Part shown: piece after piece, positions 21,219 through 51,384 of the stretch | Layout of the letters: every line of letters begins with the position of its first letter | Position numbering within the stretch: the first letter of the stretch is position 1 | Source of the DNA: an uncultured Lacinutrix sp. | GTDB taxonomy: Bacteria; Bacteroidota; Bacteroidia; Flavobacteriales; Flavobacteriaceae | DNA: 64,000 bases | Direction of reading: 5' to 3' | Assembly: GCF_947500325.1 (NCBI RefSeq) | Contig: NZ_CANMRQ010000001.1 | Coordinates: 1-64,000 of the forward strand | Program-made: the position numbers and the translations under genes | Notes under the pieces: model-generated | Told to the model about the DNA's origin: nothing | The model's database searches: none | What the model saw: only the letters and a program-made list of their open reading frames with translations

Positions 21219-21280
21219 TTATATATAATTCACTTGCTTGTTTAAGTAACAGGTGAGTGAATTAAATCTTTTAATAATTA

Positions 21281-21748
21281 GTGTCAAAATTTAAGGTCAT
21301 TTTAATTGTTATTCTATCTGCAATAGTAATCTATTTAGTAGATAATATATTCTTAAAAGAAGAATACCTAAAGGGAGTTGTTATAGAAAAAAGGTACCAA
21401 GATAAAATGATTATTACTGGGACAAGTAATAATACTCGAACAGGACATTCTGTTGTAAATACTCCAACTTATGATCCTAATGGCTATAGATTAATTATTA
21501 AAGATAAAAATGATAATCAAATAGTGATAAGGAGTAACTCTGATATTTATACCAAAGCTTACAAAGGTGACTCTGTAAAATATCGTGTATCAAAAGGGCT
21601 TTTTTCTAGAAAAATATGGAAAGCTTCCATTGTTGAAATAATACCAAATTTTGAATACAGAAAACAATTTTTAAATAAAAAACTATCACCACTAGAAAAG
21701 CTCCTTAAAACAAAAGGTGATTTTAACAAAAAAGAATATGACAAGTAA
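21281..21748 (+). CDS. small membrane-anchored hypothetical protein
   Basis: N-terminal TM, 155 aa, between flotillin and giant ATPase gene. Confidence 0.4.
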   Translation: MSKFKVILIVILSAIVIYLVDNIFLKEEYLKGVVIEKRYQDKMIITGTSNNTRTGHSVVNTPTYDPNGYRLIIKDKNDNQIVIRSNSDIYTKAYKGDSVKYRVSKGLFSRKIWKASIVEIIPNFEYRKQFLNKKLSPLEKLLKTKGDFNKKEYDK

Positions 21749-21768
21749 TTTCCCTAAAAGGAAAAACT

Positions 21769-28126: not shown

Positions 28127-28143
28127 GGTATTAATTTTAAAAA

Positions 28144-28215
28144 GAGAGCAAGCAGGATTTGAACCTACAACCTCGGGTTTGCAACCCGCTATTTTTCCAG
28201 TTAAACTATTACTCC
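28144..28215 (-). tRNA. tRNA-Cys (GCA)
   Basis: manual cloverleaf: acceptor GGAGTAA/TTGCTCT (GU pairs), D GTTT/AAAT, anticodon loop TTGCAAA, T-loop TTCAAAT. Confidence 0.65.
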
Positions 28216-28229
28216 CCTATTTATATAAG

Positions 28230-28302
28230 TTGGATGCATGAGACTTGAACTCACAACCTCCTGCTTGAGAGGCAGGCGCTCTTCCAATTGAGCTAGCATC
28301 CA
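28230..28302 (-). tRNA. tRNA-Glu (CTC)
   Basis: acceptor TGGATGC/GCATCCA, D GCTC/GAGC, anticodon stem CCTGC/GCAGG loop CTCTCAA, T-loop TTCAAGT. Confidence 0.6.
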
Positions 28303-28309
28303 ATAAAAA

Positions 28310-28381
28310 TCACGTAAGTAGGACTCGAACCTACAAATTTAGAAATGTTGCCTAATGTTTTTCCAATTAAACTATTACGTG
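28310..28381 (-). tRNA. tRNA-like gene with non-canonical anticodon loop (CAACATT; paralog of the tRNA-Cys unit)
   Basis: perfect 7-bp acceptor CACGTAA/TTACGTG, D GTTT/AAAC, T arm GTAGG-TTCGAGT-CCTAC; position 33 is A, anticodon ambiguous. Confidence 0.45.
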
Positions 28382-28394
28382 TTTTAAAAAAGTA

Positions 28395-28467
28395 AAGAAC
28401 GTATGAGATTCGAACTCACAACCTCAGGATTGTATGTCAAGCGCTCTTCCAGTTGAGCTAACGTTCT
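28395..28467 (-). tRNA. tRNA-like gene with disrupted anticodon stem (loop CATACAA; paralog of the tRNA-Glu unit)
   Basis: perfect acceptor AGAACGT/ACGTTCT, D GCTC/GAGC, T arm GTGAG-TTCGAAT-CTCAT; anticodon stem CTTGA/TCCTG pairs only 3 of 5. Confidence 0.4.
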
Positions 28468-28477
28468 TTACAATACT

Positions 28478-29841: not shown

Positions 29842-30537
29842 TTACAAAAAAGGTTCTAAAAAACCTATTAGCGATTTATCGTATTTGGACCATCGTATAC
29901 CATGGCCACTTTTTATTCTTATTTCAAAAACAATTTCATGTTTGTAATGATAAAACGTATTCCACCATGTATGATTATCTATTATATTATTTATAATGCC
30001 TTTTACTTTATCTAATTTTTGTTGTGGAGAACCTTTAATTTCTCCCCAAAAGGAATCTTCTGTTCTATCAATATGTTTTTCCCAAGCACGAACACCAACA
30101 CTAATTTGCTTATTATAATGACTCAAGCTATTGTCTAGCATCTCTTTTTTGGTCATTGGCAAACCTTCTACAGTTTTTATTGTTGCGGGCGTTTGTCGTT
30201 GCCCCATTAATAAAAGAACATGCTCAAAAGACACGCTTTGTATTGTACTGCAAATTATGTTTTTATTTATTACGTCGGAGACAAAATCTCGTTTATTAAT
30301 TTCTGAAATTGCATGTTTAAAAAATGAAAAAGAACCTTCTAAATTAGGAGCTATTTCTTCTGAAAAATAAGGGAATTGTACATTTTTTGACACACCATAT
30401 TTATGAAAATTAATACAGTTCTTTGAAAAAACACGTAGATAGTCTTCATGAAAAAACATAGAATTAACTGTTAACCAATCTTTTGAAAAAAGATCTTTTG
30501 AATCTAATAGTAGTTGTGTTAATAGAGTTGCTTTCAC
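29842..30537 (-). CDS. hypothetical protein
   Basis: 231 aa, no motif recognised. Confidence 0.4.
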   Translation of the reverse strand: MKATLLTQLLLDSKDLFSKDWLTVNSMFFHEDYLRVFSKNCINFHKYGVSKNVQFPYFSEEIAPNLEGSFSFFKHAISEINKRDFVSDVINKNIICSTIQSVSFEHVLLLMGQRQTPATIKTVEGLPMTKKEMLDNSLSHYNKQISVGVRAWEKHIDRTEDSFWGEIKGSPQQKLDKVKGIINNIIDNHTWWNTFYHYKHEIVFEIRIKSGHGIRWSKYDKSLIGFLEPFL

Positions 30538-31592
30538 TTTTTTATATTATAAAAGTTATTTCTCATTTCATAAACGAGTTTATTTACTAAATCTAAATCA
30601 GGTCTATCTATTAATTGAGAATTATCATAAATAGCATCAAGTTCTTCTTTCATAGTTTCTGCGCGAGACACTAAATCGTCGTATTCAAATTCAGCATTTT
30701 TTATTGATAACAAAAAGTCTCTATCTGTTCTTCGAACATTAATTTCATTATGTAATCCTATTTCTTTAGCCATATGTAATAACCTAAACGTATGCATCAT
30801 GTTTTTTGCATCATAGTTTTTACTGTGAGAAATATTACTTTTATAACGTTCTTCATTTCTTTTTGCTACCCAATCCCAATATTCTTTATATTTTTTGCAA
30901 TAGGTTGAATACCCATCTACATTAAAATATAAAACGGCAATAGGTTTTTCAGATTTTGGTACAGAACTTAAACACACTTCATTTCCGTTTTCTCTAACTA
31001 TACCATTATAATTTAATTCTTCATTATAAAATAGATTATAACAATCTTTCATATGAGCTAGATTTACTAATCCACAATGTTTTGGATCTAAATTCTTTTT
31101 CTTTACAAAATCTTTAAACACTATAGATTCCTTTTCTTCTCTTACATAACAAAAATCTTCCACAGACTTTCTTTCTTTTTCAACAGGGTTTACAATTTTC
31201 TTGTTTAATCCTCTTGCTTTTTTTATTTGAGTAAATGCATAATTAGCAAAGGTGTTCTTACAAAGTTTAGATACAAAATCTTTCTTTTTAATAGTATCAA
31301 ATATTGGATCCTTATAAAGTATGCACTCCTTAGGAACATTTAATAGTTCCATAATATTTGGATTATTTTTAGAGAGTAATTCAATAAACTTTCCTAATTC
31401 ATAATAAGCGATATCGTTCGTTTCATTATTAATTTGACCTATATAATTAAGCGAGTAAAATTGTGCTTTTGGTAAAATAAAAACACCTCTTATATCAGTA
31501 TCAGAAGTGGCAGTATCTAAGCCATAAGCTCTACTGCCACTAATACTTTCTAATATTATCGATCCTGATTTTTTTAATTCTTCTATTGTCAT
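30534..31592 (-). CDS. Pol-beta-superfamily minimal nucleotidyltransferase (RNA-repair-associated type, tentative RlaP-like)
   Basis: GSRAYGLDTATSDTDIRGV (GS...DxD NTase motif); 352 aa; overlaps neighbours by 4 nt. Confidence 0.55.
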   Translation of the reverse strand: MTIEELKKSGSIILESISGSRAYGLDTATSDTDIRGVFILPKAQFYSLNYIGQINNETNDIAYYELGKFIELLSKNNPNIMELLNVPKECILYKDPIFDTIKKKDFVSKLCKNTFANYAFTQIKKARGLNKKIVNPVEKERKSVEDFCYVREEKESIVFKDFVKKKNLDPKHCGLVNLAHMKDCYNLFYNEELNYNGIVRENGNEVCLSSVPKSEKPIAVLYFNVDGYSTYCKKYKEYWDWVAKRNEERYKSNISHSKNYDAKNMMHTFRLLHMAKEIGLHNEINVRRTDRDFLLSIKNAEFEYDDLVSRAETMKEELDAIYDNSQLIDRPDLDLVNKLVYEMRNNFYNIKK

Positions 31593-32335
31593 TGTATTTC
31601 TTTTAAGAAGAATGCATTAAATTCTTCAGGATTCGGCTTTTTATTAATTAAGTCGTTTTTAATACTATTATTTTCTGTAACAATATCTCTAACTAATGTA
31701 ATTAAAGTGTTGCTAACAGGTTCTGTACTTTTTTCAATATGTTTACTTTTTAAATGAATTAAATCATTTAATATAGTATGGTATTTCTCATCAATTATTG
31801 GGTACAATTCCGTGAACAAAACTGGCGGAATAGTTTCGTTTTTATAAACCCAATTAGCACACAAAGCAGTTCTTATGGCGTAGAAAAAACTTTTTAGCGT
31901 CATTTTATCTGTATCTAGTGTTTCTTCAAAACGGTAGCTCATACTATGGTAATGATAAAAACCAGATACAGGATTAAAGTTGTTTTCTGCCAAAGTTCTA
32001 ATTTCTTTTAAAAAATCGCCATTCGCTCTATACACAATAGGAGAAAATAACCAGCCTAAAAAAGACGCATTAGATTTTGCTAATAATTTTAAAGCTTTGC
32101 GAAATTCCCAACCAGAGCCATCAAGATCGTCTTCTGTCATGAACTCAATAGTATCTTTTTGTTCCCAAAGGTTTAAATACCACTCTTTTTTATGTTTATA
32201 TACAAAACGGATATCGTAATCTGAATCTGGTGACTCAAATCCCCAAGCTCTACTTCCAGATTCTACCGCAAATAGTATGTCTATATTTTTGTCTTTCTCT
32301 ATTTCAGAAAGTTTTTCTAGTATTTTAGTTTTCAT
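31589..32335 (-). CDS. Pol-beta-superfamily minimal nucleotidyltransferase (paralog of 30534-31592)
   Basis: ESGSRAWGFESPDSDYDIRFV motif; 248 aa. Confidence 0.55.
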   Translation of the reverse strand: MKTKILEKLSEIEKDKNIDILFAVESGSRAWGFESPDSDYDIRFVYKHKKEWYLNLWEQKDTIEFMTEDDLDGSGWEFRKALKLLAKSNASFLGWLFSPIVYRANGDFLKEIRTLAENNFNPVSGFYHYHSMSYRFEETLDTDKMTLKSFFYAIRTALCANWVYKNETIPPVLFTELYPIIDEKYHTILNDLIHLKSKHIEKSTEPVSNTLITLVRDIVTENNSIKNDLINKKPNPEEFNAFFLKEIQ

Positions 32336-33779
32336 TTTTCTTTAAATTTTTAAGATCTAGCATAATAGCTTCTCTATTAAATCCATCCAACTGTTTTTCG
32401 TAACATTTATCTAAGATATTTTTAAATTTTTTAGATGGCTTTAATCCTAAATCGATTAAATCTCTACCTAAAACTACAGGTTCAATTTTTCTTTCTCCAA
32501 ACTTTTTAAATAGCTCAAAGCATTTTTCGGAAGTTTCATGTCTATCTAAAATAACATTCCTTCCTGTTCTACCTGCAGAATCTGCTTTACTTTGCCAGCC
32601 TAAGATATCCAGTCTACACTTATTATGTAATCGTTTCCATGCAGCATCTTTTGCTTGAGAACGAAATAACTGACCAGGCATCATATGTAAACCTACAATT
32701 GTTTTTACTTTATTAATTAAATCTTTATCATTAGTTAAACGCATTAAAAAAGCTTCAGCTATTTTAATACCCGCAACGTCATGTCCATGAGCTTTTAAAT
32801 CTGGAGTTGTTGTAGAAGGTTTTCCAACATCATGTAATAATGCTCCAAACATATAAGCAAGCTTCCATTTTTCAGGAATTAAATGTCTTAATTTAGCAGC
32901 ATTGTCCAGAACCATTTTTGTATGAATCCATACATCGCCTTCAGGGTGCCATACTGGGTTCTGAGGACAACCGATTAAATCCTTTAATTCAGGAAAGTGT
33001 ATTAACCATCTTGAATCTTTTAAAAAATCTAGACCTATTGATGGTTTATCTGCTTTTAATAATAATTTTTCCCACTCAACAAAAACACGTTCTCTAGGCA
33101 ATTCAGAAAATGTATTTACCATTGATTGACATAAAGTCATTGTTCTTTTTTCTACTTCTCTTCCCTTTCTTGGCAATAATTGCATAATACGCAAGACTCT
33201 TAATGGGTCTTCAATAAAAGTATTTTTATCTGTTGCTTTTATTATTCCTTTTTTTAAATCCTCTATACCATTAAAAGGATCAACAATTCTGCCATTATGT
33301 AAATTTAAATACATACTGTTAATTGTTAAATCTCTTCTTTTTCCGGCTTCTTTAGGTGTCATTTCTTGATCTAATTCAATTTCAAATCCTTTATGTCCAA
33401 TTCCAATTTTATTTTCTCGTCTTGGAATAGAAATATCTATTTCTATATTATCTATTGTTGTTTTAATGACACCAAATGATTTCCCTACTAAATTACATGG
33501 TATATTTAATTCTTCAATTAAAACAACTAATTGAGGATAAGACAAACCGTAAACTTCAATGTCGATATCTTTTAGAGGTAATTTTTTTATACTATCTATA
33601 ACTGCTCCTCCAATTAACATTGCAATTCCGCCTTGTTCTTCTATTTCTTTTAATAAGTTTTTAAAGTTTTCTTCTTTAAAGACTTTATTTCTAAGGCTTT
33701 CAATATTCTTCATAATTTTTTCGCTGTTAAATAATCTAAGATTTCTATATATACTTATTTTCAATAATAGAGTGAGCAA
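32325..33779 (-). CDS. CCA-adding tRNA nucleotidyltransferase-like protein with C-terminal HD phosphohydrolase domain
   Basis: head motif GGAVID...DIDIEV, HD motif LLHDVGKP; 484 aa. Confidence 0.7.
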   Translation of the reverse strand: MLTLLLKISIYRNLRLFNSEKIMKNIESLRNKVFKEENFKNLLKEIEEQGGIAMLIGGAVIDSIKKLPLKDIDIEVYGLSYPQLVVLIEELNIPCNLVGKSFGVIKTTIDNIEIDISIPRRENKIGIGHKGFEIELDQEMTPKEAGKRRDLTINSMYLNLHNGRIVDPFNGIEDLKKGIIKATDKNTFIEDPLRVLRIMQLLPRKGREVEKRTMTLCQSMVNTFSELPRERVFVEWEKLLLKADKPSIGLDFLKDSRWLIHFPELKDLIGCPQNPVWHPEGDVWIHTKMVLDNAAKLRHLIPEKWKLAYMFGALLHDVGKPSTTTPDLKAHGHDVAGIKIAEAFLMRLTNDKDLINKVKTIVGLHMMPGQLFRSQAKDAAWKRLHNKCRLDILGWQSKADSAGRTGRNVILDRHETSEKCFELFKKFGERKIEPVVLGRDLIDLGLKPSKKFKNILDKCYEKQLDGFNREAIMLDLKNLKKNEN

Positions 33780-35105: not shown

Positions 35106-36568
<1,463 letters not shown>

Positions 36569-38432: not shown

Positions 38433-40265
38433 CTAGCTAAAGAGCTTTAAGAAACTATCTTTTTCTAAATTCTCCAAAGAGAAATCAAAGTCTGCTTCAT
38501 CTTTATAATCTGTAATCTCTGCACCTAAAGTTCTAACCAAATTATCAAATGATAACGGTTCGTTCCATTGCTGGTACAAGGCTTTAGTTGCTAATTTTGA
38601 TACTTCAGAATTACCAGAAACTCTGGTGTGACCTGCACCAAAATTTAATAACACAAAGCATTGCTTATCTTTTTTTGGAAGTAACATTCCTAAAATGGTT
38701 TGCTTCTGTACAGATTCACATTTAACATCTGCAAACAAATTGTTTGGATTCATCATATAATCTTTAGAGATTTTATCACCTTTACCAATAACAATTTTGT
38801 AACCACAATCTGTAGTCCCTGAGAACACGTTGTTTTGAACCAAAGTTGGTACATTTAAACCTTTATTAGCATACAAATACTCTACAGCTCCATTTGGAGC
38901 AGACGTAATATCTCCTGAATACATTAGGTTACCCTGTTGTTGGTTATATGTAGCATTCCAACCAATTTTACCAGCAATATTTAAACCAGATAAATCTAAG
39001 TCTCGCGCTCCCCATGCATCTTCCCAATAAATACCTACTGCCAATTTTTTACCATAAAAACGTGTCCCAGTAGGAATATTTCCTACATACATTTTTTCTG
39101 ATGTTGGCAAAGCATAGGTAATGTCCTCAGGAAAAAATAAACGCTTACCAGATAAATTAAAACGTTGTTTTAAATAGTTAAGTAAGAACTCATAATTTTC
39201 CTTAAACACTGTGTTTTCTATAACTGTACCCTTGTATTTACTAGCCTTACTTTTCTTTAAAAGATTAGCAAGGATATTATTTCTACTTACAACAGAAGTA
39301 GTATCAGATTTCACAAATGATTTACCGTTTCTAATTCTGTATAAAAAGGCATCTTGCCCTTGTTTTCTTGAATAGCAAGCAGACAAAGCCTTAAATAATG
39401 CAAAAGGCGTTGCGTTATCTAACCAATGTACATCTTTATCAGTTATCAATGTATTTGTAACATCATTTAACGGATTAGATACTAAAGGTTTGTGATACGT
39501 TTTAGATAGCTTACTAATTTTATTAATCGTTTTTGGAGCTTTGTTTTTAAATGCCAAAAACAAAGGTTTAAATCGATTAAATATCTCAGCAAGTTTTTCT
39601 AATCCAAAACTGTTAAACGCTTGTGTTGGATTGTATGAACTGTTTTTTATCAATTCAATTAACTCATCATTTTTGATTAATAAAGTAGAATCTGTAGCTC
39701 TATAGATAATGTATCTAAAAAACTCAACAGGATGCTCTGGATAAATATTATAATACTCTGCCAATTTTACAATCGCCTCTTTATTTCTAATATTTTCTTT
39801 ACCAGTAAATGTGTAACCTAATTCATCTACCAATACAATGATTAATTCGTCTACAGTATCTTCTTTTAAAGCCATACCAGATTTTAATAAAGCTAAACAT
39901 TTTTGCTTCATTATATCTGCAGAATATGCATTTATAACTTTATAGTTGAGCTTTACATTTGGAATATTTAAAATTTCTTCTGGAATATAAATGTCATCAT
40001 TAAAGTCACTTCCATAGGTTGACATATAGTGTTCTATTTGTCCTGCACACAATTCATATCTAGAGCTATTTTTTATTTTACTCCATGATTTGTGAAACGT
40101 TTTATTTAGATCATTACCATTTAATTTTTCAGCTTTAAAAAAAGTAATGATTCTGTCTTTTGCCCAAAGTGCATTTGGAGCTATGATATAGCCTTCATCT
40201 GAGATGTATGGCTTTTCGTTTGATGTTTTCGCTACTACAGCGTTAAATAATTTTAATGTATTCAT
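38433..40265 (-). CDS. large hypothetical protein
   Basis: 610 aa, no motif recognised. Confidence 0.45.
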   Translation of the reverse strand: MNTLKLFNAVVAKTSNEKPYISDEGYIIAPNALWAKDRIITFFKAEKLNGNDLNKTFHKSWSKIKNSSRYELCAGQIEHYMSTYGSDFNDDIYIPEEILNIPNVKLNYKVINAYSADIMKQKCLALLKSGMALKEDTVDELIIVLVDELGYTFTGKENIRNKEAIVKLAEYYNIYPEHPVEFFRYIIYRATDSTLLIKNDELIELIKNSSYNPTQAFNSFGLEKLAEIFNRFKPLFLAFKNKAPKTINKISKLSKTYHKPLVSNPLNDVTNTLITDKDVHWLDNATPFALFKALSACYSRKQGQDAFLYRIRNGKSFVKSDTTSVVSRNNILANLLKKSKASKYKGTVIENTVFKENYEFLLNYLKQRFNLSGKRLFFPEDITYALPTSEKMYVGNIPTGTRFYGKKLAVGIYWEDAWGARDLDLSGLNIAGKIGWNATYNQQQGNLMYSGDITSAPNGAVEYLYANKGLNVPTLVQNNVFSGTTDCGYKIVIGKGDKISKDYMMNPNNLFADVKCESVQKQTILGMLLPKKDKQCFVLLNFGAGHTRVSGNSEVSKLATKALYQQWNEPLSFDNLVRTLGAEITDYKDEADFDFSLENLEKDSFLKLFS

Positions 40266-40316
40266 GTTATTAATATTTAAATAAGTGAGGTGTATGGTTT
40301 TGATTATCGGTCAATG

Positions 40317-40560
40317 AAATAGGAACACCTTTTACCTATTATTTTTTTAAAGACGAAGAGTAATTATCTTGTACCCTTTCGGGCAGCAAGTCGTAAATTT
40401 ATAGGAACTCTATATGTCTTTTATGACGAAGCGTAAATTAACCTCAAGCTCTTTCGAGCTCTGGAATCGAACCAGATTATAGGAACGCTTTGTGTCTTTT
40501 ACTAACGGAAAGTAATTTCTCCAATGAATGTTATAGGAACTTTCTGTGTCAGTAATTTAA
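40317..40560 (-). repeat. four degenerate tandem units beginning ATAGGAAC (minus strand GTTCCTAT), some carrying tRNA T-arm remnants
   Basis: units start near 40320, 40400, 40477, 40532; unit 2 contains CTGGTTCGATTCCAG on the minus strand. Confidence 0.5.
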
Positions 40561-40563
40561 TTG

Positions 40564-40676
40564 TAGTCCAGGTGGGACTCGAACCCACGACACACGGATT
40601 ATGAATCTATACAGGAACTTTTTTTTGCTGAAGGCGAAAAGTATTTTCGTTGCTCTACCTTCTGAGCTACTGGACT
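40564..40676 (-). tRNA. aberrant tRNA-like gene (113 nt) with perfect acceptor/D/T arms but a 46-nt insertion in the variable region and a non-canonical anticodon arm
   Basis: acceptor AGTCCAG/CTGGACT, D GCTC-AGAAGGTA-GAGC, T GTGGG-TTCGAGT-CCCAC; anticodon region ACGAAAATACTTTTCGC. Confidence 0.4.
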
Positions 40677-40810
40677 ATTTTTTTATTATGTTAAAGAACG
40701 TTGTACCTCTTACCAGATTCGAACTGGTACTTTCACATAACGTGAACAGATTGACTCTAAATGCGCTTCCCTACTATAATTTCGGTGCTTCTGCAAATTC
40801 TATTCGATAG

Positions 40811-41933
40811 CAAGCTTGTCACTAACGACATATTCAATCACTCCGTGGCTACGATTAAAAGTCTTTTACCACAGCTCTTCCTTTTAAGCTAAAGAGGCCT
40901 AATATTTTAAAAAGCGTTCTGAGAATACCTCCGCTTATAAACAAGCTTTCCTAGAATTATAGTTTACACTTTCTCTAGTTTTCCACGTGCTTCTTATTGC
41001 TTAGAGAATTACGTACTTGTTCGATGCCTTAATACATTACAACTGTTCGGCAACTTAGACTTGACTTGCATAGTGACTTTTGTCACGCTTTGCAATTACA
41101 AGGGTTGGCTCCCTCACCATTTATAAGCGTCCTCTTTTGAGGCGGCTTATTAGAATGTTCACCGCAAGACAAAGGTTTGCGACCTCCATCTCCCCATATA
41201 TTACAATGGGTTTAGGCAACTACTAACTGCTGTAATGTTCGAAGTCTTTTGCTTTTTACTCACCAACTGAGCAGTATCAAATTATGGTTTAGATACTAGG
41301 AATCGAACCTAGAAATAAAGTTTTGACCTTGGAAAAGGGCTTCGAAAATGGCTTCGTAGATTTTAGCCTACAAAATACCAACCTTTTCCATGCGTGTTTC
41401 CCAACACACCGTATGTTTAGCTACCGAATAGTTTCCTATCGGGTACCTATAATACTGCAATACGCTCCGTTAAATTGGATGATCTATACGTAACCTATTA
41501 CTACAACTTTTCCTGTTAATGTCTCCATTTCAAGCCTAATTAAATGTTAGCTATAAACCCTTATTTACCTCAGCGGTTGCCCCTTGTAAATAGAAATTTA
41601 TGTTAGTTGCTTGCTTACCTGTACTATACTCAAAAGAATACAGTCTCCATTTGCAGTGTCTGCAAATAGATTTATCCTTGTTACCAAGTTTATCTATGGA
41701 CGATAAGCCGCCCCATTATTTATAATAAATAATGATTTCTTTATATATAGAAGCTATAAATTTTCAGCTTCTTTTAATTTCAATGAACGTTTTTATTAAA
41801 CTCCACCAGCTTCAAAATCTGGTGGAGTACTACTTATAAAGTCTGATTCCAAAAGACTTTTAATTAATTACTCTGCAAATATTTTACACTATTACGCAAT
41901 GTTTTTGCGTAGTTAAAATGATTTATGAAATTT
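40811..41933 (-). ncRNA. 1.1-kb ORF-free, GC-enriched, hairpin-rich block; candidate large structured RNA (strand uncertain), containing a tRNA-like T-arm/acceptor with encoded CCA near 41285-41318
   Basis: no ORF of 60 aa or more in six frames inside a gene-dense island; local GC visibly above flanks; many imperfect hairpins. Confidence 0.3.
41866..41906 (-). promoter_or_regulatory. shared operator/promoter module (third copy) upstream of RNA ligase
   Basis: ACTACGCAAAAACATTGCGTAATAGTGTAAAATATTTGCAG on the minus strand. Confidence 0.5.
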
Positions 41934-42929
41934 TCAATAAAGCTGTAAAATTTCTTGCCTAATAAGCTTAGCAGAGCATTGATTAAGTTGTTTTGTTAAT
42001 CGTTTTTGTTCTACTTTTTCAAGCAATTGAAACGATGTTCCAAATTCTTTTGTGAAATCTTCAAAAGCATCTTTAGAAAGAAAACCAATTAATTTACCAA
42101 TTTGGCAACTGTCTAAATTACTTTCTTTACTCATTACATTTGCCAAACGGTTTGGGTTGATATAACGCTCTAATTCAACCTGTAATAGATTAGCTTCTTT
42201 AGAAAGCTCAATTTGTAATACTGTTTTAGAATTGGCTTTGCTTTTTTCACTCCATTTCGCATTTTTATTTTTAATAATAACTCGATTTCCATTTGGTAAA
42301 AAATGAGGCTCTACAGGTTTAATAACTACACCTTCACAAATATTATCTTTAATTTCAGGTAGTTTTAACCATTTAGGAATTTTGCTTTCAAATGTATTTG
42401 AATACTCTAATGATTCTTTTAATTGACCTCTAAATAATGTTTTTGCATAGAAAAACCCATGTGCTTCTAATAATTGATTTACTTCAATTACATTTAGATA
42501 ATATGACTGGTTAAGCATAATATCAAAAGCATAAAACCCATTATATGGTGCATAAAACACTCCTTTTTGAACCTTCATAGCTCCTCTCGCTTGTTCTATA
42601 TCTGGATAACTCCCGCCAAATAATTCACCAAATACAGTAATAGATTTTGTATCTGAATATTTCTTTTTTATTGCTTCGAAAAGTAATAGCATTTTAGTGT
42701 AATACATCTCTTTAATTAAGGTATGATTGTAAAATGAATCTGAATCTTTTAAAAGACTTGTACGTTTTGCTGATTTTAAATCTTTACCATTAGTAATTAA
42801 ACTAAAATTTGCTCCATGCACTTTTTCCTGTACAACAAAATCATTATTGTTTACGGTAGCTATTGCTACACGTTCTATGAATTCTGTTCTATATGAGTTT
42901 TCAATTGAATTGTATTTTTTAAATTCCAT
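41934..42929 (-). CDS. RNA ligase, T4 Rnl2 family
   Basis: near-colinear with T4 Rnl2: FKKYxSxEN, motif I EKVHGANFSLI, EGVVIKP, NGNRVIIKNKNAKWSEK; 331 aa. Confidence 0.85.
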   Translation of the reverse strand: MEFKKYNSIENSYRTEFIERVAIATVNNNDFVVQEKVHGANFSLITNGKDLKSAKRTSLLKDSDSFYNHTLIKEMYYTKMLLLFEAIKKKYSDTKSITVFGELFGGSYPDIEQARGAMKVQKGVFYAPYNGFYAFDIMLNQSYYLNVIEVNQLLEAHGFFYAKTLFRGQLKESLEYSNTFESKIPKWLKLPEIKDNICEGVVIKPVEPHFLPNGNRVIIKNKNAKWSEKSKANSKTVLQIELSKEANLLQVELERYINPNRLANVMSKESNLDSCQIGKLIGFLSKDAFEDFTKEFGTSFQLLEKVEQKRLTKQLNQCSAKLIRQEILQLY

Positions 42930-43035: not shown

Positions 43036-43521
43036 TTAAACAACCTTATCTGCACAAGATGAACTTGCAAAAGCATAAGGCTTAGCTTTAAAAACGAATC
43101 CCATTCCTAAAATGTAGCCCATAGCATCTTTAAGAGCCACATTAGATTCAAACTTAGGATCTGTATTAATATCTGCGTGAACCTCTAAAGCAACATTATA
43201 TTTATCTAGTATATCACAAATAGCATATGCTACTTCTACAGACATAGTTACTTCTTTAAGCATACGTTCTTTAATACCAATTTGTTTTGTGCCTTTATAG
43301 TTTCTCATAAACATAAAACCTCCTTTTCCTTCACGAAGCACTACAATAACTGTCGCATATTCTACGTGAGAGTTGTAGGCTTGAGAATCTGAACCTACAC
43401 AAACCTTTAGACGATGTCCAGCCTTTTGCTCTCTTATAATGGCATCTTCTAGAATACCAGTAATAGGTTGATCAAAGAATTCACCACTAAAGCTTCTCCA
43501 TTTTTGCTGTTCATTTTTCAT
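43036..43521 (-). CDS. hypothetical protein (possible RNase H-like DUF458/YkuK-type fold, tentative)
   Basis: 161 aa. Confidence 0.3.
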   Translation of the reverse strand: MKNEQQKWRSFSGEFFDQPITGILEDAIIREQKAGHRLKVCVGSDSQAYNSHVEYATVIVVLREGKGGFMFMRNYKGTKQIGIKERMLKEVTMSVEVAYAICDILDKYNVALEVHADINTDPKFESNVALKDAMGYILGMGFVFKAKPYAFASSSCADKVV

Positions 43522-43779
43522 AATATTGACCGCGAAAGCGGTTATCTTTTTAGTTAAATAATTATGTTGTGGAATAAACTGGATTAGCTCGCTAATTTTT
43601 ATTTTTTTAGCTGTGCTCGTGAATGCAAAAGCATTTTAAACCAGTATCTTCCGGGCTTAACTCAATGAATTTTATTTCATTAAATAAGATTCGTTGAATT
43701 CGTAAACTCATTTCTACCGGACGTATAGACCTACCCTTCGACTCCGCTCAGGACATGCTTTGCTATTATTCCTTTTTTG

Positions 43780-43852
43780 GGGTGATTTCGGGACTCGAAC
43801 CCTATTCTTCTCATTCACAGTGAGACATTTTACCTGTTAAACTAAAACCACC
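43780..43852 (-). tRNA. tRNA-His (GTG)
   Basis: anticodon arm TCTCA-CTGTGAA-TGAGA; T-loop TTCGAGT; C73. Confidence 0.65.
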
Positions 43853-43883
43853 ATTTTTAATTCCCATGAAAATGGGAATCTTA

Positions 43884-43958
43884 GTTCTGACAAAAGGATT
43901 TGAACCTTTATCCACAAACGTATCAGGTTTGCACTTTACCAATTAAGCTATGTCAGAA
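43884..43958 (-). tRNA. tRNA-Ile (GAT)
   Basis: acceptor TTCTGAC/GTCAGAA; anticodon arm CAAAC-CTGATAC-GTTTG; T-loop TTCAAAT. Confidence 0.7.
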
Positions 43959-43963
43959 TGTTG

Positions 43964-44034
43964 TTAACCCAATAGGACTCGAACCTATACCTCAAGAGTC
44001 AAAGTCTTGAATGCTGCCATTACACCACAGGTTA
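43964..44034 (-). tRNA. tRNA-Gln (TTG)
   Basis: U1-A72; anticodon arm CAAGA-CTTTGAC-TCTTG; T-loop TTCGAGT. Confidence 0.65.
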
Positions 44035-44040
44035 ATTTTG

Positions 44041-44113
44041 TAAGCTTAATAGGACTCGAACCCATATTCCCAGAGTCGTATTCTGGAGTGTTATCCAATT
44101 ACACCATAAGCTT
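44041..44113 (-). tRNA. tRNA-Arg (ACG)
   Basis: acceptor AAGCTTA/TAAGCTT; D GTGT/ACAC; anticodon arm CCAGA-ATACGAC-TCTGG. Confidence 0.7.
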
Positions 44114-44118
44114 ATTTG

Positions 44119-44192
44119 TATCCTACCTCGGACTCGAACCGAGAAATCACAGCGCTTAAAACTGATGCCTTTTCCAATTTGGCCAGTAGGAC
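44119..44192 (-). tRNA. class-I-shaped tRNA with Leu-type anticodon TAA (short variable arm; T27-T43 mismatch)
   Basis: acceptor GTCCTAC/GTAGGAT; anticodon loop TTTAAGC; variable GATTT; A73. Confidence 0.5.
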
Positions 44193-44197
44193 ATTAG

Positions 44198-44271
44198 TAC
44201 AGGAAGAGAGATTTGAACTCTCAAAATCTTGTTTCTAAAACAAGCGCGTATGCCAGTTCCGCCATTCCTGC
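44198..44271 (-). tRNA. class-I-shaped tRNA with Leu-type anticodon TAG (short variable arm)
   Basis: acceptor GCAGGAA/TTCCTGT; anticodon arm CTTGT-TTTAGAA-ACAAG; variable ATTTT; A73. Confidence 0.5.
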
Positions 44272-44276
44272 ATTAG

Positions 44277-44350
44277 TTGAGATGTCAGGAATCGAACCTG
44301 AACCTTTCGCCTTATGAGAGCGATGCTCTACCTAGTTAAGCTACATCTCA
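44277..44350 (-). tRNA. tRNA with CAT anticodon (Met elongator or Ile-lysidine; not initiator-like)
   Basis: acceptor TGAGATG/CATCTCA; anticodon arm TCGCT-CTCATAA-GGCGA. Confidence 0.65.
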
Positions 44351-44355
44351 ATTTG

Positions 44356-44427
44356 TTGAGGCAATAGGGATCGAACCTATGACTGTCACGATGTAAGCGT
44401 GATGCTCTTCCGCTGAGCTATACCTCA
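44356..44427 (-). tRNA. tRNA-Val (TAC)
   Basis: D GCTC/GAGC; anticodon arm TCACG-CTTACAT-CGTGA; T-loop TTCGATC. Confidence 0.7.
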
Positions 44428-44432
44428 ATTTG

Positions 44433-44504
44433 TACTCTATAAGGGAATCGAACCCTTGTCTTCCGATAGAAAGTCGGATGCACTAACCACTATGCTAATA
44501 GAGC
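44433..44504 (-). tRNA. tRNA-Glu (TTC) with U at position 37
   Basis: anticodon arm TCCGA-CTTTCTA-TCGGA. Confidence 0.6.
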
Positions 44505-44510
44505 ATTTTG

Positions 44511-44582
44511 CGGTTCATACGAGAGTCGAACTCGTATCTCCCGAGAGACAGTCGGGAAGGATAGCCATTACCCCAATGAACC
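44511..44582 (-). tRNA. tRNA-Asp (GTC) with U at position 37, G73
   Basis: acceptor GGTTCAT/ATGAACC; anticodon arm CCCGA-CTGTCTC-TCGGG. Confidence 0.6.
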
Positions 44583-44589
44583 TTTAAAA

Positions 44590-44743
44590 ATTGAAGCTGA
44601 AATCGAAGTCGAACCTGAACTTATATAGCTTCGTTTTTATCTTCATTTTGTACATCTACCTGGATTAGTTCGTATCACACATATTTTTTTAAATGAGTGA
44701 GCTAAATCTTTAGTGCTATCCATTACACCATAAATGCTAATTG
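44590..44743 (-). pseudogene. decayed tRNA remnant(s): intact-looking 5' half (GCATTTA-TG-GTGT-AATGGATA-GCAC) with degenerate anticodon/T region and an unrelated GAAGCT...AGCTTC hairpin
   Basis: 5' half resembles the Arg/Gln genes of the array; no complete cloverleaf can be drawn. Confidence 0.35.
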
Positions 44744-44826
44744 TGGAAGTAGTAGGACTCGAACCTACATGCTCCGAAGAGACCAGATTTACAGTCTGGC
44801 GAGCCAACCAATTGCTCAATACTTCC
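44744..44826 (-). tRNA. tRNA-Tyr (GTA), type II with 14-nt variable arm
   Basis: acceptor GGAAGTA/TACTTCC; anticodon arm CCAGA-CTGTAAA-TCTGG. Confidence 0.7.
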
Positions 44827-44920
44827 AATTTTGAGACAAGGATGAGATTGTTACACGTTCTCATCAAGTCACAAATTGAATGTCACATTTTTAAACAGGT
44901 TTAAAATGTTTTCATCATTG

Positions 44921-44993
44921 AGACAAGGATGAGATTCGAACTCATAAAAAACAGTTTTGCAGACTGTTACTTTAACCATTCAGCCACCTTGTC
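44921..44993 (-). tRNA. tRNA-Cys (GCA), second copy
   Basis: acceptor GACAAGG/CCTTGTC; anticodon arm ACAGT-CTGCAAA-ACTGT; preceded by a 19-bp direct repeat of its own 3' end. Confidence 0.6.
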
Positions 44994-44997
44994 TTTG

Positions 44998-45070
44998 CGA
45001 TAGTGATAGGATTCGAACCTATAACCAAGGACTTAACAGATCCACGCTCTGCCATTGAGCTACACTATCA
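44998..45070 (-). tRNA. tRNA-Asn (GTT), G73
   Basis: acceptor GATAGTG/CACTATC; anticodon loop CTGTTAA. Confidence 0.65.
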
Positions 45071-45075
45071 TTTTG

Positions 45076-45148
45076 AGGAGTTACGGAGACTTGCACTCCA
45101 TTCTGCACATTGCAAACGTGCTGTTTTGGCTTGGTAAACTATAACCCC
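45076..45148 (-). tRNA. tRNA-Ala (TGC) with G3:U70 identity pair and unusual T-loop TGCAAGT
   Basis: acceptor GGGGTTA/TAACTCC; anticodon arm GCACG-TTTGCAA-TGTGC. Confidence 0.6.
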
Positions 45149-45159
45149 ATAATTTTTTG

Positions 45160-45246
45160 CGGAGAGCAAAGGAATCGAACCTTCACCGCCATAAAGCGGA
45201 CTTGTTTAGCAGACAAGCGCAACAAACCAGTATTTGCCTACTCTCC
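45160..45246 (-). tRNA. tRNA-Ser (GCT), type II
   Basis: anticodon arm CTTGT-CTGCTAA-ACAAG; long variable arm; G73. Confidence 0.65.
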
Positions 45247-45259
45247 ATTTATTTATATC

Positions 45260-45333
45260 GTCTAAGAGACAGGATTCGAACCTGCAACCTCTCGCTTCCA
45301 AAGCGAGTAAACTATCCATCGTTCTCCTCTTAG
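45260..45333 (-). tRNA. tRNA-Pro (TGG), C1-G72, A73
   Basis: acceptor CTAAGAG/CTCTTAG; anticodon arm CTCGC-TTTGGAA-GCGAG. Confidence 0.7.
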
Positions 45334-45338
45334 TTTTG

Positions 45339-45425
45339 CGGAAGGAGTGGGAATCGAACCCACACGAGTCGTTATCTCCGAACAGTTTTCAAAACTGTGG
45401 CCACCACCTATTGGCTTGCCCTTCC
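45339..45425 (-). tRNA. tRNA-Ser (TGA), type II
   Basis: anticodon arm ACAGT-TTTGAAA-ACTGT; long variable arm; G73. Confidence 0.65.
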
Positions 45426-45434
45426 ATTTTTTTG

Positions 45435-45508
45435 TTGACGTAGTGAGAGTCGAACTCACATAACCTCGATTAAAAGTCGAGTGCTTTAGCCAGTTAAGCT
45501 ACACGTCA
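45435..45508 (-). tRNA. tRNA-Lys (TTT)
   Basis: acceptor TGACGTG/TACGTCA; D GCTT/AAGC; anticodon arm CTCGA-CTTTTAA-TCGAG. Confidence 0.7.
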
Positions 45509-48711: not shown

Positions 48712-49407
48712 TTAGTTATTTAATTCATTGCGTAAATCATTTTTTAATGCGCAACGTTGTTTTTTATATTTTTTTACAACTGTATTCTTTTTAAAATTTG
48801 AGCCTTTAAAAACTTGTATAGGATTACCTCTTTCTAATTTTAAATGGTTTCCCCATTGGTTTTTAATACTCATTTGTAAAGCTTCTAATTGTATTGCGCT
48901 TACTTTTTCTTGCAAGCGTATTTTTGCTATTTTTTTATTTTGATGTTGTGAGCGGCTATCCATAACTAATACTTGTGTTTTAGTTAGTTTATGAATAGCC
49001 CTAATAGCGGAGCTCACTTTATTTACATGCTGTCCTCCAGGTCCAGAACTACGAGTTGCTTGATATGTAATATCTTTGTCATGAATTTGAAATTCTTGAC
49101 TTTGTTCTATCTCATATAAACCCACAAACCAATTTTTACGTTTATGATTTGGCCTAAAAGCCGAAACGCCTATCCACTGTATTGTTCCTTTCCATTGACT
49201 TAAAAACACCTCTAGGTTTTCTCCTTTTAATTGAACAGTAACCGACTGCAATGTCAAATTCTCTATTCCTTTTTCCCTTTGTAATATTTTATAATCAATA
49301 GCATTGCGTTTTACAGCTTCTAAAAATTGCTTTAAAACTTGAGCCACAACCCAACAACATTCTGCTGGTCCTCGACCTGAGGTTATTTGTATTATTTTAG
49401 TATTCAT
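48712..49407 (-). CDS. prfH: peptide chain release factor homologue PrfH (GGQ-containing; RtcB2-associated)
   Basis: matches E. coli PrfH block-by-block: GPAECC, WKGTIQWIGVSAFRPNHKRKNWFVG, RSSGPGGQHVNK, ERGNP; 231 aa. Confidence 0.85.
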   Translation of the reverse strand: MNTKIIQITSGRGPAECCWVVAQVLKQFLEAVKRNAIDYKILQREKGIENLTLQSVTVQLKGENLEVFLSQWKGTIQWIGVSAFRPNHKRKNWFVGLYEIEQSQEFQIHDKDITYQATRSSGPGGQHVNKVSSAIRAIHKLTKTQVLVMDSRSQHQNKKIAKIRLQEKVSAIQLEALQMSIKNQWGNHLKLERGNPIQVFKGSNFKKNTVVKKYKKQRCALKNDLRNELNN

Positions 49408-49992: not shown

Positions 49993-51384
49993 TTACCTAG
50001 CCATTCTCACTATTTTTGGTGTAAACTTGCCAACAACCTCAACTAATTCTAATTGATTTTGCATCACTTTTTCAATGTTTTTATATGCCATTGGCGCCTC
50101 GTCAATACCGCCTCCAATTAAAGAGACGTCATGCTTTTGCAATTCTTTTTTTATTGCACTTTGCGTTAATGTCATTTTACATTGTCGTCTTGACAATAAA
50201 CGTCCTGCACCGTGAGATGCCGATTGTAAACTCTCTGTATTACCTAATCCTCTAACTATAAATCCTGGCGCCGTCATAGATCCAGGAATAATACCTAGCT
50301 CTCCTTTTTTTGCTGGTGTCGCTCCTTTTCTATGTACTATACATTCTTGACCATTTACGTCTTGTTTCCAAGCGAAATTGTGATGATTTTCTATTTTGGC
50401 AATTGGTCTTTCTCCTAATAATTTACCTATGCGTTTATGAATATCATCATGGCAAGCTTTTGCATAATCTCCAGCCAAATTCATAGCTAGCCAATATTCT
50501 TGTCCGTCGTGAGTATTTAAATCTAACCATGCTAAATGCTGTACATGTTTTGGTAACGGACATTGCTTTGTTGCCAAATATGTATAATGCTTAGCGATGT
50601 TAGCACCCAAACCTCTTGAACCACTATGTGATAAAACACCTAAGTATTCTCCTATTGGTAAATCCCATTCGTTATTTACATCTAGAATACTTACTTGACC
50701 AAATTCGACAAAATGATTGCCGCCACCCGAAGTTCCTAATTGCTTATAAGCTTTATCTTTTAAGCGTTTTACTAACGGAATCGTTTTAAACTCTTCACGT
50801 TCAAAAACTGGATCATCATGTTTTATTTTGTGCGTTTCGTACATCCCAAATTTGGTGTGCTCCGACAAAATATTTTCCAATTGATGCTTCTTTCCTTTTA
50901 AATAAGAGGCTTTAACGGGATATATAGTTAAACACATTCTGCACCCAATATCTACGCCTACACCATAAGGAATAACAGCATCTTTTGTTGCTAATACGCC
51001 TCCAATTGGCAATCCATATCCTACATGTGCATCTGGCATTAAAGCACCAGCAACTGCAATTGGTAGTTTTAAAGCATCGAATAATTGATACTTTGCTTTA
51101 TCGTCGATTTCATTGTCTCCATAGATTTGAAATGGTGCGCGATGTGTATTTAATACTTGCTTTTTTACCACTACAGGATCTAATAAACTTTCGGCTATTT
51201 TACCCCAAACACCATCACCTTTATAAGCCTCAGGATTTAATAATACTTTCTTTGCTTCTATTAATATTTTTTCTTTTTTTATTCTTTTCTGGTAACGATT
51301 AATTTGACCTAAAGTCACATTAATACTATTGTTTTTCGGAAAGCCTAACTTGATTAAGTCTTTCCCGCTTAATTTCTTTCCCAT
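49993..51384 (-). CDS. rtcB: RtcB-family RNA ligase, PrfH-associated paralog (RtcB2-type)
   Basis: RtcB motifs PDAHVGYG, GCRMC, GGGNHF, HSGSRGLG, HHN; 463 aa; same operon as prfH. Confidence 0.8.
   Translation of the reverse strand: MGKKLSGKDLIKLGFPKNNSINVTLGQINRYQKRIKKEKILIEAKKVLLNPEAYKGDGVWGKIAESLLDPVVVKKQVLNTHRAPFQIYGDNEIDDKAKYQLFDALKLPIAVAGALMPDAHVGYGLPIGGVLATKDAVIPYGVGVDIGCRMCLTIYPVKASYLKGKKHQLENILSEHTKFGMYETHKIKHDDPVFEREEFKTIPLVKRLKDKAYKQLGTSGGGNHFVEFGQVSILDVNNEWDLPIGEYLGVLSHSGSRGLGANIAKHYTYLATKQCPLPKHVQHLAWLDLNTHDGQEYWLAMNLAGDYAKACHDDIHKRIGKLLGERPIAKIENHHNFAWKQDVNGQECIVHRKGATPAKKGELGIIPGSMTAPGFIVRGLGNTESLQSASHGAGRLLSRRQCKMTLTQSAIKKELQKHDVSLIGGGIDEAPMAYKNIEKVMQNQLELVEVVGKFTPKIVRMAR

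Follow-up and report, generated by a model that had tools for sequence, protein, structure and literature searches.

It is well established that supernumerary tRNA arrays can be acquired by horizontal transfer (PMC4758250, PMC8421152, PMC5966550). One account of long arrays (L-arrays) reports that they spread horizontally, that their neighbourhoods are rich in RNA-processing and translation genes, including rtcB, and that Bacteroidetes are among the phyla carrying them; in Anabaena, translational stress was found to induce an L-array, which is co-regulated with rtcB (Santamaria-Gomez et al. 2021, PMC8421152). Behra et al. (2019) reported that a tRNA-Leu(UAG) encoded in a tRNA cluster of Mycobacterium mucogenicum and M. 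phocaicum has a short variable loop and that a different tRNA cluster, in M. aubagnense, contains a GOLLD RNA gene with tRNA-like pieces within or beside it (PMC6582537). A review considers the long variable arm of tRNA-Leu to be universal except in animal mitochondria, the tRNA-Leu of which is charged, without the arm, by a bacterial-type leucyl-tRNA synthetase (LeuRS) via A73 and A14 (PMC9976931). Here, we describe a tRNA array from an uncultured Lacinutrix sp. (Flavobacteriaceae; assembly GCF_947500325.1, contig NZ_CANMRQ010000001.1, positions 1 to 64,000 of the forward strand; this stretch of 64,000 nucleotides is hereafter referred to as the window), in which two adjacent genes with leucine anticodons lack the long arm. 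These genes are probably functional, leucine-accepting tRNA-Leu genes of a phage-derived supernumerary array.

Structure and amino acid identity of the two leucine tRNA genes

The tRNA genes at 44118–44271 of the window were called with ARAGORN and the Rfam tRNA model (RF00005), and the sequence was then read directly. The two programs agreed on two minus-strand genes, with boundaries at 44118/9–44192 and 44197/8–44271 and Rfam scores of 49.7 and 61.1 bits (gathering score 29). Both genes are 75 nt long, and we refer to them as tRNA-Leu(UAA) (44118–44192) and tRNA-Leu(UAG) (44197–44271). Leu(UAG) is segmented as GCAGGAA TG GCG GAACTGGCATA CGC G CTTGT TTTAGAA ACAAG ATTTT GAGAG TTCAAAT CTCTC TTCCTGT A, and Leu(UAA) as GTCCTAC TG GCC AAATTGGAAAA GGC A TCAGT TTTAAGC GCTGT GATTT CTCGG TTCGAGT CCGAG GTAGGAT A. 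Both have a 7-bp acceptor stem opening with G1:U72, a 3-bp D stem with an 11-nt D loop, a 5-bp anticodon stem (with a U27-U43 mismatch in the UAA gene), a canonical T arm and the discriminator A73. The variable loop consists of 5 nt ending in U48 in both genes, and the long class II arm is not present. The leucine-box anticodons lie in 7-nt loops with U33: UUUAGAA, with A37 and A38, in Leu(UAG), the gene of which does not include the CCA end, and UUUAAGC, with G37 and C38, in Leu(UAA).

The class I shape, the 5-nt variable loops, A73 and the loops TTTAAGC and TTTAGAA had been noted in a preliminary description of this DNA, and all were borne out by direct reading. The same description had left room for an alternative fold with the standard type II leucine structure. 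Such a long-arm fold is ruled out by the length of 75 nt, the covariation described below and the gaps between the two genes and their neighbours, which, at only 4–5 nt, leave no room for a hidden long arm.

The Leu(UAG) alignment comprised 27 class I sequences (arrays: 16; phages or viral contigs: 11), and standard pairs were found in 99.8% of its cells, with changes on both sides in 16 of the 20 pairs. Its covariation score was 0.743, as against 0.209 for shuffled alignments (a score of 0.743 was reached in none of 500 shuffles) and 0.09–0.17 when the pairing partners were slid by one to three columns. The 13 class I sequences of the Leu(UAA/CAA) alignment gave a similar picture: 96.3% of the cells were paired, 16 of 20 pairs changed on both sides, and the covariation score (0.760) was not reached by any of 500 shuffles. 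In the slid-partner controls across the two families, 30–53% of cells were paired. The co-varying 5-bp anticodon stems fix the register of the anticodon in both families. This pairing and covariation indicate that the class I cloverleaf of both leucine families is under purifying selection, and that the genes are neither pseudogenes nor decayed.

For charging by E. coli LeuRS, the elements needed are A73, the A15-U48 Levitt pair, G18G19 and A20a. Neither the anticodon nor the long arm is among them, and tRNA-Leu without the arm is still active (Giege and Eriani 2023, PMC9976931); the picture for the Aquifex enzyme is in agreement, although the orientation of the arm plays a part there (PMC2377443). 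U8-A14 has been shown to be a determinant for the LeuRS of Aquifex, and contacts with the D and T loops have been shown for that of E. coli (PMC9976931, PMC2377443). The residues U8, A14, A15, G18, G19, A20a, U48 and A73 are invariant in both class I leucine alignments, for which the array copies were found independently of any tRNA sequence pattern. The two window genes also have the T-loop residues U54, U55, C56 and A58, which do not vary among the array copies. We also compared the segmentation of the D arm, side by side, with those of E. coli leuW and leuZ, the tRNA-Leu of phage T5 and the class II tRNA-Leu of a flavobacterial relative (locus L012). The D arm of the window genes has the architecture of leuW and leuZ, and both genes display the leucine-type combination of a 3-bp stem, a purine13-A22 mismatch and an 11-nt loop. 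The sole architectural difference is that the variable region of 13–15 nt in leuW and leuZ is replaced by 5 nt ending in U48.

The determinants of other synthetases were not found. Neither gene has the G3:U70 element of AlaRS; the lack of a long arm excludes SerRS and bacterial TyrRS; PheRS is unlikely without G34; and CysRS is excluded, as U73 and G15-G48 are not present. Thus, no identity elements for Ala, Ser, Tyr, Phe or Cys, of the sort that would mark a mistranslating tRNA, were detected in the two genes. The arm-less tRNAs are, therefore, very probably tRNA-Leu species that have lost the arm and would be charged with leucine by the host LeuRS, because bacterial LeuRS reads A73 and the elbow formed by the D and T loops rather than the arm or the anticodon. 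The two genes would then descend from ordinary long-arm tRNA-Leu genes by loss of the variable arm and, if the host LeuRS charges both products, the UAA tRNA would read UUR and the UAG tRNA would read CUA and CUG, and possibly all CUN codons. The preliminary description had considered charging with leucine through an unusual identity set; the leucine part of this suggestion stands, given the invariant determinants, but the set is the ordinary one of bacterial LeuRS.

Charging with some other amino acid, with misreading of UUR/CUA, had also been suggested in that description. Leucine-anticodon tRNAs of this kind would cause deliberate UUR/CUN mistranslation, comparable to that by the mistranslating tRNAs of Streptomyces. 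A class I shape is, indeed, unexpected for a bacterial tRNA-Leu, and the UAA gene shares A35, A36 and A73 with tRNA-Phe, its loop UUUAAGC being similar to that of the array tRNA-Phe (UUGAAGC). However, in addition to the absence of G3:U70, of a long arm and of G34, the anticodon bases recognised by most other synthetases are missing, and the D arm is of the leucine type (A14, A15, G18, G19, A20a) and differs from that of the array tRNA-Phe. Furthermore, the arm-less form is conserved in at least 17 species, and UUA accounts for 5.57% of the codons in the open reading frames (ORFs) of the window (all leucine codons: 9.57%), so misreading would damage the whole proteome. We consider mistranslation to be extremely improbable.

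The other tRNAs of the array have retained the identity elements proper to their amino acids (G3:U70 in Ala, G73 in Asp, C1-G72 and A73 in Pro, G-1 and C73 in His), so the set looks as if it were built for correct charging. This bears on a further suggestion of the preliminary description, that the genes encode decoys, i.e., tRNA-shaped RNAs soaking up tRNA-targeting nucleases or tRNA-binding factors rather than decoding. The sequestration of toxin RNases has been suggested for the tRNAs of the Anabaena operon (PMC8421152), the genomic island described below also holds clearly non-canonical tRNA-like genes, and the array tRNAs do not encode CCA. Nevertheless, a decoy would need neither A73 nor the LeuRS elbow determinants, U33 or the anticodon, and the invariance of these features, of the anticodons and A73 in particular, would be left unexplained. 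The identity marks of the Ala, Asp, Pro and His tRNAs argue in the same direction, and a CCA-adding enzyme is encoded in the island. Decoys are therefore an unlikely explanation.

The array, its phage relatives and arm loss

ARAGORN identified 22 tRNA genes in the window, 18 of which form a single minus-strand array at 43778–45508, confirmed with the Rfam tRNA model at its gathering threshold. The order of the genes is Lys, Ser, Pro, Ser, Ala, Asn, Cys, Tyr, Asp, Glu, Val, Met, Leu, Leu, Arg, Gln, Ile, His, with spacers of 3–12 nt in the intact stretches, and this order is common to locus L001 and other Flavobacteriaceae loci. Apart from two decayed genes, the array thus comprises 18 intact genes within 1.73 kb, a density of about 10 per kb, and the L001 array has 20. 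L-arrays have been defined by Tran et al. as having at least 20 genes and at least two genes per kb; the window array exceeds this density but falls just short of the count.

Relatives of the locus were identified, in bacterial assemblies with one genome per species, via an anchor, the RNase H-like protein (PF04308) encoded directly downstream of the array (43036–43521, minus strand). There were 586 anchor relatives, the closest being from an uncultured Psychroserpens sp. (90% identity of the anchor protein). The 19 closest (L001–L019) are from Flavobacteriaceae, including the genera Psychroserpens, Tenacibaculum, Winogradskyella, Dokdonia and Flavivirga, or from unnamed Bacteroidota, and lie mostly on contigs of 0.2–1.6 Mb. 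A tRNA array is found directly upstream of the anchor in all 19 loci, and no array was found beside the anchor in the Saprospiraceae and Lewinellaceae loci (L020–L080). The 75-nt Leu(UAG) is present in 16 of the 19 flavobacterial loci and the arm-less Leu(UAA) in nine (eight copies of 75 nt and one of 76 nt, in L013), always with the loop UUUAAGC, and L012 has an 87-nt long-arm Leu(UAA) beside a 75-nt Leu(UAG). Homologous arrays with arm-less leucine tRNAs are present in at least 17 Flavobacteriaceae species. ARAGORN called no tRNA-Thr in any of the 19 flavobacterial arrays.

The Leu(UAG) gene of the window matches a gene of the T5-like Vibrio phage VspSw_1 (Demerecviridae) and its relatives along its whole length, with 89% identity. 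Phage vB_ValS_X1 has neighbouring UAG and UAA genes, both annotated as tRNA-Leu, each 77 nt long and encoding CCA. In Gordonia phages, a relative that has almost no arm (variable loop of 6 nt) is likewise annotated as tRNA-Leu, and a similar stretch in Proteus phage PM135 is not annotated. BLAST searches of phage records yielded no match for the Leu(UAA) gene, and close phage relatives were thus identified for the UAG gene only. The patchy distribution of the array and the 89% identity of Leu(UAG) to the Vibrio phage tRNA indicate that the array is horizontally acquired and phage-derived, and probably supernumerary.

Arm-less leucine tRNAs were detected in 11 IMG/VR contigs with a strict sequence pattern and in at least 120 with a looser one. 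The ARAGORN analysis of 113 newly fetched contigs gave, among the matches listed, 161 class I leucine genes (anticodons: 114 UAG, 27 CAA, 17 UAA and 3 AAG), most of which lie within arrays of at least five tRNAs and 154 of which have A73. Among these matches, U48 was found in 131 and A73 in 130 of the 135 distinct sequences; as the looser UAG pattern fixes positions 8–10, 14, 15, 18, 19, 20a, 22, 33–38 and 54–58, the independent evidence from the pattern-selected viral UAG set is limited to U48, A73 and the stems. Many of the viral homologues encode CCA, which the window array tRNAs do not, each of them ending with the discriminator and a C.

Over all the leucine genes collected, the length of the variable region forms a continuum of 4–17 nt; in T5, for example, tRNA-Leu(UAG) is 85 nt long, with a variable region of 13 nt. 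Within the Leu(UAA) lineage, related contigs have 11 nt (L173, L099 and L102) or 5 nt (L132, L180 and L117), and the orthologous Leu(UAA) slot holds the 11-nt form in L173 and the 5-nt form in L132 and L180. The continuum and the occurrence of both forms in the same lineage indicate that arm reduction is recurrent and recent in mobile tRNA-Leu genes, and that the length of the arm changes readily in evolution. In the window array, the Tyr tRNA, of 84 nt, and the two Ser tRNAs, of 88 nt, retain long arms, which would be explained by the need of SerRS and bacterial TyrRS for the arm.

Not all of the array is intact. A tRNA-Arg(UCU) gene at 44650–44737 (minus strand) retains, in alignment with the Arg(UCU) gene of L001, the 5' half and the 3' end, but its middle has been replaced, and a second copy of the 3' end of the Cys tRNA, caatctcatccttgtctca, lies in the Cys-Tyr spacer (44827–44919, minus strand); these two features point to rearrangement of the array. 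Alignment with the Phe gene of L001 also revealed an interrupted tRNA-Phe(GAA) homologue at 43568–43772 (minus strand), called by neither ARAGORN nor Rfam, with three insertions, of about 24, 50 and 46 nt, in the D-loop, anticodon-loop and T-loop regions. It retains both ends, GGAATAA...TTATTCCAC, and could be a pseudogene or something stranger.

These observations are pertinent to the possibility that the arm-less leucine tRNAs are functional and charged with leucine, but that the loss of the arm is non-adaptive drift in mobile sets and the array is mostly silent phage cargo. The continuum of 4–17 nt and the recurrent and recent loss between orthologous slots are consistent with drift, as are the dispensability of the arm for E. 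coli LeuRS (PMC9976931), the frequently poor expression of L-arrays (PMC8421152), and the gene decay in the window array. However, housekeeping tRNA-Leu never loses the arm despite the same tolerance of LeuRS (PMC9976931), which suggests that selection differs between mobile and housekeeping sets. Moreover, the arm-less form persists across genera under strong purifying selection, and the isotype-specific, invariant nature of U37 and other loop features described below speaks against drift alone as the source of at least some of the pattern. Drift is a serious possibility, to which we nonetheless give less than an even chance.

The preliminary description had also pointed to U37 in the Glu(TTC) and Asp(GTC) genes and to G55 in tRNA-Ala. 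Direct reading confirmed these features: tRNA-Glu(UUC) (44432–44504, minus strand) has the loop CUUUCUA, tRNA-Asp(GUC) (44510–44582, minus strand) has the loop CUGUCUC and G73, both with U37, and tRNA-Ala(UGC) (45075–45148, minus strand) has the T-loop UGCAAGU, with G55, together with G3:U70, U73 and a D loop without GG. Their clustering in a single array was likewise confirmed, but as conserved traits of the lineage rather than as random defects. The Asp loop is identical in all 20 array copies and the Glu loop in all 12, and the Glu anticodon stem co-varies around its invariant loop, fixing the register. Among the matches listed, only 26 of 1501 tRNAs from viral contigs have a pyrimidine at position 37, and 16 of these 26 are Asp or Glu. 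U37 thus appears as a recurrent, isotype-specific trait of mobile tRNA sets. The unusual Ala tRNA is not restricted to the window either: the combination of G55 and a D loop without GG is also found in L012 (8667–8739), and tRNAs detected by Rfam only, and missed by ARAGORN, occupy the Ala slot in L001 (8417–8489), L003 (8759–8831), L004 (8446–8518) and L006 (8368–8440). G55 and the lack of G18G19 in the D loop may represent a co-varying elbow contact.

Other departures are found at positions 37 and 38, sites of the type targeted by TrmD, MiaA and RlmN. The array Leu(UAG) and Pro(UGG) tRNAs have A37, where E. coli leuW and tRNA-Pro carry G37, and the array Leu(UAA) and most of the Phe(GAA) tRNAs have G37 and C38, as against A37 and A38 in E. 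coli leuZ. These departures suggest independence from modification by TrmD and MiaA. Van den Berg et al. (2023, PMC10264068) proposed that changes in the anticodon loops of phage tRNAs serve to escape anticodon nucleases, and either such evasion or independence from host modification enzymes is possible for the loops of the array.

The RNA-repair neighbourhood and the possible role of the array

The window has a G+C content of about 30%. Between about 26.8 and 52.8 kb (about 26 kb), nearly all genes are on the minus strand, and many are related to RNA repair or ribosome rescue. The gene for a T4 Rnl2-type RNA ligase (41934–42929, minus strand; PF09414 and PF18043; phrog_548) lies on one side of the array, and those for PrfH, a release-factor homologue involved in ribosome rescue (48712–49407, minus strand; TIGR03072 equivalog, 221.7 bits with a cut-off of 166.65; PF00472), and for an RtcB RNA ligase (49993–51384, minus strand; PF01139, 2.5e-81), the likely partner of PrfH, on the other. 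A second RtcB paralogue is encoded at 35106–36506 (minus strand; PF01139, 4.3e-37), and two RlaP nucleotidyltransferases and a CCA-adding-type enzyme at 30534–33779 (minus strand), the last of these (32325–33779) having a PolyA_pol head, an RNA-binding domain and an HD domain. Further genes of the island encode DUF434/DUF5616, R2K ATP-grasp, RNase T-like exonuclease and PcfJ-like proteins. In most relatives, homologues of RtcB, PrfH, RlaP, RNase T and Rnl2 are found within 10 kb of the array, in shuffled combinations. A prophage was ruled out, given the chromosomal flanking genes and the absence of structural phage genes in the window. The left flank has genes for a type III polyketide synthase, a ketoacyl synthase and FAD-dependent oxidoreductases, and the right flank has genes for a prolyl oligopeptidase and for a protein whose sorting domain, of the type IX secretion system (T9SS), points to Bacteroidota.

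The array would thus have become fixed in the chromosome of a marine Flavobacteriaceae bacterium, inside a same-strand repair block of about 26 kb. By analogy with the Anabaena L-array, with its induction by translational stress and co-regulation with rtcB, the array might be a spare supply of tRNAs for use when translation is damaged by ribotoxins, phage infection or antibiotics, a role for which we consider the balance to be even. RtcB/PrfH, Rnl2, RlaP and the CCA-adding enzyme would mend ribosomes and tRNAs while the array replaced tRNAs.

A more specific proposal is that the loss of the arm, U37 in Asp and Glu and the exchanges at positions 37/38 in Leu, Pro and Phe are adaptive, the array being a toxin-proof spare set deployed together with RtcB, PrfH, Rnl2, RlaP and GOLLD RNA. 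Each change would remove a handle for a toxin, or a dependence on TrmD, MiaA or RlmN, with recognition by the synthetase kept; the toxins concerned might, for example, be anticodon nucleases or nucleotidyltransferases with a preference for long-arm tRNAs, such as MenT3. The preferred substrates of MenT3 are tRNA-Ser and one tRNA-Leu, the long arms of which were pointed out by its authors as a possible basis for recognition; it is speculative that arm loss removes a handle for toxins of this kind. On this proposal, tRNA-Leu would be the only class II tRNA able to shed its arm, because only LeuRS ignores it. We regard this adaptive explanation as tentative and rather doubtful.

Several points weigh against our reading of the arm-less tRNAs as functional leucine acceptors, or against a role of the array in countering toxins. 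The LeuRS determinants used come from the enzymes of E. coli and Aquifex rather than from a LeuRS of Bacteroidota, and in the case of Aquifex the enzyme responds to how the arm is oriented (PMC2377443). Whole-molecule similarity to about 450 reference tRNAs gives no unambiguous isotype: the closest reference to Leu(UAG) is E. coli leuW, but Leu(UAA) could, by this measure, be Arg, Gln, Glu or Leu, as the stems diverge freely. The isotype was therefore assigned on the basis of determinants and not of similarity scores. With the D arm only, both genes group with Leu, tied with Cys, since tRNA-Cys also has a 3-bp D stem; a Cys identity is ruled out by A73, A15-U48 and the anticodon. The array itself is partly decayed, with the disruption of Phe and Arg(UCU), and lacks the Gly and Trp genes of its relatives, so it is not a complete or essential set. 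The departures of its loops from those of host tRNAs are judged from E. coli comparators and general knowledge, and PADLOC and NCBIfam detected no tRNA-targeting toxin or known defence gene among the unannotated ORFs of the window.

The island also contains a number of unusual RNA elements. A GOLLD RNA homologue was found at 40913–41390 (minus strand), between the Rnl2 gene and a 610-residue ORF of no known function (38433–40265); the match covers the full length of RF02032 (positions 1–416) with 131.9 bits (E=3.9e-36), below the gathering score of 150. The setting, next to a tRNA cluster, is typical of GOLLD RNAs, and the element is treated as a divergent homologue. GOLLD RNAs are known from phages and a mycobacterial tRNA cluster, and a chromosomal copy from Flavobacteriaceae, inside an RNA-repair island, may deserve separate study. 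Close to it, a tRNA-like gene with a 51-nt insertion in the anticodon arm lies at 40564–40676 (minus strand; Rfam tRNA, 48.3 bits), and a second tRNA-like element, at about 40703–40893 (minus strand), has acceptor halves GCCTCTT...AAGAGGT about 190 nt apart. Similar insert-bearing tRNA matches occur downstream of the anchor in L012 (10734–10847 and 10857–10973). Just upstream of the 610-residue ORF, at about 40300–40620 (minus strand), four copies of the motif GTTCCTAT and a fifth, variant one, GTTCCTGT, were seen by eye at a spacing of about 60 nt, one copy being followed by the T-arm-like GGTTCGATTCC.

A second cluster, of four aberrant tRNA-like genes detected with ARAGORN and Rfam, is located at 28143–28468 (minus strand), flanked by RNA-repair genes. 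The genes were called as Cys-GCA, Glu-CTC, Cys-ACA and Val-TAC; two of the loops (CAACAUU and CAUACAA) have A33 in place of U33, and some of the genes have 8-bp acceptor stems or mismatched anticodon stems. They may not be decoding tRNAs. In the Tenacibaculum locus L005, a 92-nt class II-shaped tRNA-like gene with a GAA (Phe) anticodon was observed downstream of the anchor (11268–11359); its D arm is identical to that of E. coli leuW except at the last position, and its acceptor stem is poor.

On the plus strand, a five-gene block (16642–26658) ends with a gene for a 1629-residue protein with DUF3686, DUF7902 and AAA domains, DUF3686 being annotated as 'ATPase involved in DNA repair'. The 495- and 688-residue ORFs upstream have no family matches, and no significant PADLOC match was obtained for the block. 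The five genes may form an uncharacterised defence-like system adjoining the RNA-repair island.

Comparison with described systems

If the tRNAs are indeed used, the locus is a natural experiment on LeuRS identity, with an arm that is dispensable in vivo. Together with its phage relatives, it represents a large overlooked natural exception, in mobile tRNA sets, to the universality of the tRNA-Leu arm. It also serves as a warning for annotation: a class I shape with a leucine anticodon, in a phage or array context, is not in itself a sign of a pseudogene or of recoding. Cultured marine Flavobacteriaceae would provide a tractable system for determining the role of supernumerary tRNA arrays coupled to RNA repair, and arm loss and U37 are specific candidates for the escape of tRNAs from tRNA-targeting toxins.

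The closest counterparts are the Mycobacterium clusters (PMC6582537) and the tRNA array units of Morgado and Vicente (2018; PMC5966550), which are, like the array described here, supernumerary, encoded on the same strand and likely of phage origin. The short-loop Leu(UAG) of the Mycobacterium clusters (PMC6582537) contrasts with a long-arm housekeeping isoacceptor and resembles the Leu(UAG) of the window. Unlike these clusters, however, the window array belongs to Flavobacteriaceae, its UAA isoacceptor is also arm-less, U37 is invariant in Asp and Glu, and it is embedded in a large block of RNA-repair and ribosome-rescue genes, whereas the mycobacterial clusters lie beside HNH endonucleases.

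The trn operon of Anabaena sp. PCC 7120 and the window array are both long, and both add redundant isodecoders. The Anabaena array is plasmid-borne, and its induction has been demonstrated experimentally; the accessible text of the Anabaena account does not mention arm-less tRNA-Leu (PMC8421152). Like the PrfH-RtcB2 module and the RlaP RNA-repair operons, the window has a prfH gene beside rtcB and two rlaP genes, but the available descriptions of those systems, as far as their accessible text goes, include no attached tRNA array (PMC9304027, PMC9223846, PMC12776372).

As regards the phage tRNA sets, such as that of T5, proposed to evade anticodon nucleases, the Leu(UAG) of the window is close to that of a T5-like Vibrio phage, and the array has conserved, isotype-specific departures from E. 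coli comparators at loop positions 37/38. The T5 set lies in a virion genome and has a Leu(UAG) with a 13-nt variable region, whereas the window array is chromosomal and has a variable region of 5 nt. The tRNA-Leu of animal mitochondria is class I-shaped, like the window genes, but it is of independent origin and its D/T elbows are degenerate, in contrast to the canonical elbow and bacterial leucine-type D arm found here.

Within the literature searched, which included few subscription journals, no study treating arm-less bacterial or phage tRNA-Leu as a phenomenon was found, and one sentence in PMC6582537 mentions it. The kind of element is already known and has been described in other bacteria. 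What is new, within the same literature, is its occurrence in Flavobacteriaceae, the absence of the arm from the UAA isoacceptor as well, U37 as a constant feature of the array Asp and Glu tRNAs and the coupling to a repair island, together with the explicit link to LeuRS identity and the widespread recurrent loss of the arm in viral contigs.

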